This document shows, piece after piece, positions 33,857-34,569 of a DNA stretch of 46,437 nucleotides. Within the stretch, counting starts at the first letter, position 1, and the number at the start of each line of letters is the position of its first letter. Below the pieces are notes generated by a model. The model was given only the letters and a program-made list of their open reading frames with translations, had not been told where the DNA came from and did not search any database. The translations under genes were made by a program, and so were the position numbers. Origin of the DNA: a virus (taxonomy: Duplodnaviria > Heunggongvirae > Uroviricota > Caudoviricetes); the IMG/VR virus record IMGVR_UViG_2925903241_000005, positions 1 to 46,437 of that record, one strand, 5' to 3'.

Positions 33857-34246
33857 TCAGGCGGCTGCACCCGCCGTTTTCTCGTACTTACTGATAGTGA
33901 TCTCGACCTTCCCTTCCGGGATAACCGGCCCCCACTCCACCAGCATTCTTTTCACCTGGCTGTCGTCTTCCCACACCCCCGCGTGGGTCAGGGCGTCAAA
34001 CAGCGCCTTGTTATAGTTGTCCAGATCGCGGATCCGGTTATCCGGAGGAAACAACACGATCTCCACTGAAGCAGGTGCCGACGTTGGTTTCGGCAGACGA
34101 CGTAACTGCTCAACTATTGCTGCGCACGCCGCGCTCTGGAATTTTCGCCCCGCCTCGCTTATCAGGCTTTTACCTACAAACGCCCCTTTGTTGGGGTGTC
34201 GCCAGTACGTGTTCACGCTGGGCGGAAAAGGCAGGATCAGCTTCAT
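33857..34246 (-). CDS. rusA: Holliday junction resolvase RusA
   Basis: ..PPSVNTYWRH..IRDLDNYNKALFDALTHAGVWEDDSQV.. matches RusA family motifs; nin region. Confidence 0.7.
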   Translation of the reverse strand: MKLILPFPPSVNTYWRHPNKGAFVGKSLISEAGRKFQSAACAAIVEQLRRLPKPTSAPASVEIVLFPPDNRIRDLDNYNKALFDALTHAGVWEDDSQVKRMLVEWGPVIPEGKVEITISKYEKTAGAAA

Positions 34247-34569
34247 ACTTTCAGGTCCCTCTCATGTAACCAGTGGGTTGCACGCAGCCTTGCGTTTTCC
34301 TCACCGGCAAGCAGTGCGCGGATAATCCCGACCGCCTCGCTGTCGTCGTCCTTCACCGCGGTATGAAGCGTTATCCCCCGGGCCACGCCACGCTTTATCG
34401 TGATGACGCCTTTTTTCTCCAGTGCGCGAAGATGCTCCACCGCTGCATTCACCGAACGGTATCCCAGCATGGTTGCCACCTCCTGATTGGTTGGCGGGAA
34501 GCCACGTTCTTTCTGATAAGAAATCAGCATATCCAGCACCTGCTGCTGGCATTGAGTTAACGTCGTCAT
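34243..34569 (-). CDS. LexA N-terminal DNA-binding-domain-like protein (no S24 peptidase domain)
   Basis: LTQCQQQVLDMLISYQKERGFPPTNQEVATMLGYRSVNAAVEHLRALEKKGVITIKRGVARGITL aligns by eye with the LexA winged-helix domain; protein is only 108 aa. Confidence 0.55.
   Translation of the reverse strand: MTTLTQCQQQVLDMLISYQKERGFPPTNQEVATMLGYRSVNAAVEHLRALEKKGVITIKRGVARGITLHTAVKDDDSEAVGIIRALLAGEENARLRATHWLHERDLKV

Follow-up and report, generated by a model that had tools for sequence, protein, structure and literature searches.

[quoted passage not shown] From these features we infer that the protein is very probably a working regulator that escapes cleavage, binds DNA sequence-specifically and dimerises through its C-terminal tail. 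Its targets may be SOS-box-like sites, a reading that we tentatively prefer and that would make it a surrogate of LexA. The existence of the gene and its homology label were already present in the databases, and truncated phage homologues of LexA are a known kind of protein. The new elements are the conserved helical tail, a signature at positions E44 and R28 that extends over the whole family, and the occurrence of the gene in two genomic settings.

The open reading frame is intact and starts with ATG (Table 1). Residues 1–65 of the product match the whole 65-position profile of LexA_DNA_bind (PF01726) with an E value of 2.9e-19, and the score of 69 bits passes the gathering threshold (cut-off 23.7). 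A phmmer search of the PDB matched the N-terminal domain of Escherichia coli LexA (1lea) at E=6e-16. Over residues 1–68 the two proteins are identical at 35 of 68 positions (51%), and the recognition helix is identical at 9 of its 12 positions; the E. coli LexA reference used in the alignments agrees with the PDB sequence over residues 2–86. The AF2 model, which was built from an input alignment of 18 family sequences and has a pLDDT of 84, displays helices at residues 6–22, 28–35 and 40–52 followed by a beta-hairpin wing at 56–68. Using Foldseek, the model superimposes on LexA from the LexA–DNA complex (3jso_B) with an rmsd of 1.0 Å over 68 residues at 50% identity. The stand-alone LexA winged helix of 108 aa that had been proposed from the letters of the window is thus borne out. 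The TGA stop codon (34243–34245) overlaps the ATG of rusA (34244–34246), and the two genes are translationally coupled via this ATGA overlap, as had also been proposed.

Table 1. Features of the LexA-like gene and its surroundings in the window
Feature	Position	Strand	Basis
LexA-like gene, 108 aa, stop codon included	34243..34569	-	ORF list; PF01726; PHROG 362; dN/dS
Ribosome-binding site GGGAG, 8 nt 5' of the LexA-like ATG	34578..34582	-	read from sequence
ATGA overlap, LexA-like stop and rusA start	34243..34246	-	coordinates and sequence
LexA-type winged helix-turn-helix, residues 1-68	34366..34569	-	AF2 and Foldseek (3jso_B)
Recognition helix SVNAAVEHLRALEK, residues 39-52	34414..34455	-	alignments with LexA
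Two-helix hairpin in place of the S24 domain, residues 74-103	34261..34350	-	AF2 and tail-only HMM
rusA, Holliday-junction resolvase, 3' partner	33857..34246	-	PF05866, E=4.8e-15
Phage Dam methyltransferase, directly upstream	34638..35219	-	PF05869, E=9e-45
pR-like promoter TTGACC-17-TAGCAT	37818..37846	-	consensus match only
Cleavable CI repressor, HTH_3 and S24, opposite the pR-like promoter	37889-38515

A Pfam search of the 108-aa protein gave no match to Peptidase_S24. The NCBIfam lexA equivalog profile (TIGR00498) is matched only over positions 1–91 of 203, with 70.6 bits, below its curated cut-off of 110.95. Both results agree with the predicted absence of the S24 domain, and there is no room for a lost one, because rusA, itself a good match to PF05866, already begins within the stop codon. 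What follows the winged helix is a linker (residues 69–75) that has low confidence in the AF2 model, and then two helices, 74–88 and 93–103, modelled with a pLDDT of about 90 and having no counterpart in LexA in the Foldseek superposition. This hairpin is most likely a dimerisation module that joins two subunits and stands in for the S24 domain. The two-helix tail is common to relatives down to 38% identity, and an HMM made from the tail only retrieves nine distant clusters with E values of 1e-13 to 6e-17. The protein ends in LKV. No meaningful match was found in the PADLOC defence-system library.

A fragment of a frameshifted lexA, the explanation that the original prediction had set beforehand as its own refutation, is ruled out by the rusA overlap, the conserved tail and the full-length match to PHROG 362; the full 108 aa, tail included, are those of a conserved family. 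Cleavage in trans was likewise considered. Residues A88-G89 align with the LexA cleavage site Ala84-Gly85 (LLAGE versus VAAGE), G89 is N or K in close relatives, and the AG motif is missing from distant relatives. The pair also lies inside a predicted helix of the AF2 model, and cleavage at this site was ruled out on both grounds. Lacking both a protease domain and a conserved site for cleavage, the protein would be out of reach of inactivation by activated RecA.

The residues of LexA listed as DNA-contacting are S39, N41, A42, E44 and E45 (PMC3091678). The window protein is identical to LexA at S39, N41, A42 and E45, and also at H46, K53, R64 and G65, and has V at position 44; the alignment with contact residues proposed as a check therefore came out in favour at S39, N41, A42 and E45 and against at E44. 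Across the 14 clusters of the family, S39, K53, R64 and G65 are each kept in 14, N41 and H46 in 13, A42 in 11, and E or D at position 45 in 10, while R28 and E44 are kept in none. By comparison, R28 is present in 11 of 13 and E44 in 10 of 13 full-length LexAs sampled by the same search. In addition, S63 is often A in the family, and residue 7, which is R in LexA and in all distant relatives, is C in the window protein. Two members (P0164 and P0139) have 11 of the 12 recognition-helix positions as in LexA, only position 44 differing; some relatives carry Y in place of N41, or L, I or G in place of E45, and changes at these two positions occur in some members of the second setting described below (type B). 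That so much of the recognition helix is retained when the proteins as a whole are only 40–50% identical speaks for a similar half-site. Nevertheless, because R28 and E44 are lost, S63 is often A and residue 7 is C, the predicted specificity or affinity must be at least partly different from that of LexA.

SOS boxes are not enriched in the window, where 18 matches with one mismatch were counted against 14.9 expected, and none lies near the LexA-like gene. The sole perfect CTGT-N8-ACAG of the window (13862–13877) has a GC-rich spacer, is located inside an 859-aa tail-gene ORF, and is probably a chance match. An inverted-repeat scan of positions 30400–38100 for an operator private to the phage yielded nothing convincing: all repeats belonged to ori iterons or terminators or lay within genes. 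Inverted repeats in this part of the window include a cluster at 36287–36349 (GTCAGATTTTGAC and variants) within the HTH_36 replication gene, probably the origin iterons, and a 16-nt repeat at 33657–33692, 81% complementary with a 4-nt spacer, in the 5' part of kilA-N.

With the replication genes on one side of it and Q on the other, the gene was fairly assigned to the nin region. Reading leftward from pR, the order is a CII-family gene, the HTH_36 replication gene with its ori iterons, a PerC-family gene and dam, and then the LexA-like gene, rusA, kilA-N, DUF968 and Q; adjacent genes mostly share a few bases. The pR-like promoter is presumed to drive this early-right operon, including the LexA-like gene. 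A promoter scan gave no convincing candidate directly in front of the LexA-like gene, and the annotated dam promoter of SfV is weak (TTGCGC / TTACGG). Given the placement in the pR operon and the lack of a promoter match just upstream, the protein should be made only in lytic development.

The dam gene of the window is shortened at its end. A TAG codon (34638–34640, minus strand) terminates it where mEp460 has GAG, with the consequent loss of the last 23 aa relative to mEp460 and the opening of a 68-bp gap before the LexA-like gene; mEp460 and SfV have no such gap, an ATGA uniting the start of the LexA-like gene with the stop of dam. The window Dam matches positions 1–193 of 217 of the PADLOC MTase_II profile. 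Between the replication gene and dam lies the PerC-family ORF (35219–35713, minus strand; PF06069, E=2e-9). In EPEC and EHEC, proteins of the PerC/Pch type regulate virulence. A DinI-family gene (PF06183, E=7e-20) is represented by its 3' part at 1–207 on the plus strand, cut by the start of the window; it and the LexA-like gene are located at opposite ends of the prophage.

The position upstream of rusA and/or DUF968 and Q is shared by the window and ten distinct contexts of relatives, which fall into two settings. Type A comprises the window, mEp460, SfV, 2H10, mEp390 and the loci L002–6 and L013–16. At these loci the gene forms part of the early operon, with a variable upstream neighbour (Dam, a C5 methyltransferase or a replication gene), a near-constant overlap with rusA, and then DUF968 and Q. 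The rusA overlap is as in the window in mEp460, SfV, 2H10, mEp390, L002, L004–6 and L013–16. No SOS box was found at the type A loci.

Type B comprises L007 (Enterobacter), L008 (Salmonella Choleraesuis), L009 together with 80 Klebsiella viral contigs, and L010/11. These loci begin with a terminator-like hairpin and a promoter with a perfect CTGT-N8-ACAG box whose eight central bases are A/T-rich. The first genes are an optional dinI (PF06183) or a gene for a 95-aa RecA C-terminal-domain protein (PF21096), followed by a conserved GUG-initiated ORF of 75–82 aa and by the LexA-like gene, here with an N-terminal extension. A 66–67-aa ORF, rusA in some loci, DUF968 and Q complete the arrangement. 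In four distant clusters (L007, L008, L009 with the 80 Klebsiella loci, and L010) a perfect box heads the unit that contains the LexA-like gene together with dinI or the RecA C-terminal-domain gene and a gene for a GfoA-type antirepressor; a perfect 8-base SOS core is expected by calculation about 0.15 times per 10 kb. Among the 80 Klebsiella loci (L018–97), which are close kin of one another and not independent samples, the box is found within 1.5 kb upstream in 72 and dinI in 77.

The type B arrangement has the same architecture as the dinI–gfoA/gftA–irsA operon of the Gifsy prophages, with the LexA-like gene in the irsA slot. In Gifsy, a LexA box is followed by dinI, a small antirepressor gene with a non-canonical start codon, and irsA, and control by LexA has been demonstrated (Lemire et al., PMC3121763). 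The small type B ORF ends in …RRGYRVEPAF, which is similar to the C-terminus of Gifsy-1 GfoA (…RRLGYRVTPPSDI, as translated from primer le163). The window copy differs from this operon in that it has neither a LexA box nor an adjacent dinI, and its prophage has a cleavable CI. Gifsy-2 was located by the primer arms given in Table S1 of PMC3121763, and identity of the LexA-like family with IrsA was rejected: Gifsy-2 irsA (STM1020) encodes a 200-aa DUF1367 protein (PF07105, E=4e-98). The two genes are not homologous; apart from the operon slot, all they have in common is the sequence at the junction and the opening codons MAH. This common junction (…GCGCCACGGAGAnTACCATGGCGCA and the MAH codons) is located at L007 4990–5010 and Gifsy-2 L017 3520–3550, and looks like a mosaic recombination joint at which one gene has replaced the other.

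SOS boxes also precede other genes at loci of the family. In L010 (4244–4597), two adjoining SOS boxes (one perfect, one with one mismatch) precede the gene for the 95-aa protein that consists of a RecA C-terminal domain only (PF21096); the antirepressor-like ORF and the LexA-like gene lie downstream of it. The Klebsiella viral contig L018 has, behind a perfect SOS box, a 109-aa ORF (1943–2272, plus strand) that is UmuD-like (GFPSPAKDYAEQR…). Its identity to UmuD is 27% over 81 aa (pairwise E=6e-8), the catalytic-serine segment is deleted, and it has no Pfam match; such a protein may act as a decoy that binds RecA*. Four phages with the LexA-like gene have, downstream of Q, an N6_N4 DNA methyltransferase gene whose start carries a perfect SOS box or closely follows one (L001 10599–10614; L008 7741–7756; L015 about 12312; L016 about 12446); the window is without such a gene.

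As a surrogate of LexA, the protein would be a small LexA-derived DNA-binding regulator composed of a winged helix, a flexible linker and a two-helix pairing hairpin. It would be transcribed with the delayed-early genes from the pR-like promoter and, for that reason, would appear only after the phage's own cleavable CI is gone. Its winged helix would recognise CTGT-type, SOS-box-like half-sites and hold LexA-type operators shut in a cell in which LexA has been destroyed. Host SOS functions would thereby be damped, and the LexA-controlled antirepressor operons of rival prophages blocked. The LexA-like recognition helix speaks for this reading, as does the recurrent siting among SOS-tuning genes and behind LexA boxes in relatives; a precedent for the predicted effect is lexA3, an uncleavable LexA that abolishes Gifsy induction (PMC3121763). 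Against it stand the family-wide loss of R28 and E44, the lack of SOS-box enrichment in the window, and the behaviour of the truncated LexA homologue gp6 of GIL01, which binds a different palindrome and acts as an activator (PMC6182141). The changes at N41 and E45 would be unexpected if all members read the invariant host SOS box, and a dimer formed through a different module may misfit the 16-bp spacing of that box.

It is rather doubtful that the full scenario holds, in which a RecA-proof surrogate made by induced lambdoid phages, Stx2 phages among them, would re-close SOS boxes, shut down the host SOS response and block the antirepressor operons of co-resident Gifsy-, 186- and N15-type prophages. 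The gene would then be a weapon of prophage competition in about 40% of E. coli strains, and the negative-feedback arm of the antirepressor operon in the Klebsiella, Enterobacter and Salmonella relatives.

Only slightly less likely than SOS-box-like targets is the alternative that the protein regulates transcription for the phage alone, whether as repressor or as activator: it would keep the LexA fold but bind an operator of its own phage and set the timing of delayed-early or late functions, much like GIL01 gp6 at P3 (PMC6182141). The replacement of E44 and R28 throughout the family is consistent with such a change of target, and positions 41, 42 and 45 vary by subgroup, which suggests diverging specificities. 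In every case, too, the gene sits upstream of Q among regulatory or early genes, and phage structure predictions reveal stand-alone LexA-domain proteins as frequent across many phage groups. However, the inverted-repeat scan gave no conserved candidate operator between 30400 and 38100, and the recognition helix is nearly identical to that of LexA in most type A members. The gp6 precedent, for its part, is an analogy by architecture only, because the two proteins have no detectable sequence similarity.

The constant neighbourhood of the gene lends itself to another explanation, namely that the protein is a DNA-binding accessory of RusA and of the DUF968/HNH module that loads, positions or restrains the nucleases and has no part in transcription. 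Translational coupling to rusA occurs in the window and in most type A relatives; rusA follows within two genes in 9 of the 10 distinct contexts of the family, and DUF968 follows in every context that is long enough, down to 38% identity. In lambda, moreover, the small DNA-binding protein NinH adjoins the junction resolvase NinG/Rap. Even so, an accessory role is improbable, since the LexA-like gene is kept in the 80 Klebsiella-type loci without any rusA, and many rusA-carrying phages are not known to have the LexA-like gene. The conserved gene order of a co-inherited module is weak evidence for a physical interaction, and the LexA-like constraint on the recognition helix points to sequence-specific binding.

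The family itself is large and well preserved. The window protein matches PHROG 362 ('transcriptional repressor', about 106 aa) with residues 1–108 against positions 1–106 of 106 (E=3.8e-59), and its distant relatives P0126, P0132, P0139 and P0218 also match over full length. Exhaustive phmmer searches found nine further 50%-identity clusters of 105–165 aa that can be aligned through the tail. The original prediction had treated the gene as a curiosity, a view that does not hold: it is carried by 2232 of 5426 complete E. coli genomes (41%), in up to four copies per genome, and is already annotated by PGAP as 'LexA family transcriptional regulator'. Members occur in SfV (orf42, 'unknown'), SfII, SfIV, cdtI, mEp460 and mEp390 and in Stx2a, Stx2c and Stx2k phages, and Klebsiella, Enterobacter, Raoultella, Salmonella and Atlantibacter are rich in relatives. 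A literature search found no functional or experimental study of the family. Four proteins (P0130, P0131, P0156 and P0161) carry two tandem LexA_DNA_bind domains without S24, a single-chain 'dimer'.

Relative to SfV and 2H10, the dN/dS ratio of the gene is 0.2–0.36, with few replacements, mainly in the linker and the tail, and by this measure the gene is under purifying selection. A captured lexA that is now in decay and without present function is hardly a credible explanation, because the gene is conserved (full-length ORF intact in 2222 genomes, low dN/dS, tail hairpin preserved across clusters at 38–50% identity, PHROG 362 matched over full length), even though the LexA alignment continues weakly into the linker and cleavage region, which is consistent with an origin by truncation, and a non-polar deletion of Gifsy irsA, which occupies the same slot with a different family, gave no induction phenotype (PMC3121763).

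Should SOS boxes indeed be bound by the protein, the host DNA-damage response could be overridden inside the induced cell by a prophage gene that is very common, with possible effects on mutagenesis, persistence, colicin release and the induction of neighbouring prophages, toxin phages included. If it instead reads an operator of its own, it would join GIL01 gp6 as the second independent instance of a phage that has turned the LexA fold into a regulator of its own. The finding is no surprise, but it offers a reasonable lead for experiments.

The PHROG 362 and PGAP labels fit the window protein as a full-length member, yet these labels denote homology only. E. coli LexA (1lea, 1jhh, 3jso) has the same N-terminal winged helix, and in addition the S24 protease and dimerisation domain with its Ser119/Lys156 dyad and a conserved Ala84-Gly85 site, all of which the window protein is without; R7, R28, E44 and S63 of LexA are replaced, and no SOS box precedes the gene in the window. 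The uncleavable lexA3 (Ind-) protein and the LexA 1–84 fragment are the functional analogues behind the idea of a mimic, each being a LexA DNA-binding activity that escapes removal by RecA*, but both keep the native recognition residues. The free N-terminal fragment of LexA binds DNA weakly and is degraded by ClpXP via its new VAA C-terminus. The window protein, by contrast with a fragment ending in VAA, ends in LKV and carries a tail of its own.

The GIL01 protein gp6 is a 66-aa truncated phage homologue, 44% identical to the host LexA domain, that binds its own palindrome, distinct from that of LexA, and activates the late promoter P3 (PMC6182141). [quoted passage not shown] It belongs to a Bacillus tectivirus and has no tail, whereas the window protein has an extra 35-aa tail, and BLASTP gave no local alignment between the two at E<=100. 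As the one characterised truncated phage homologue of LexA, gp6 shows what such proteins can become.
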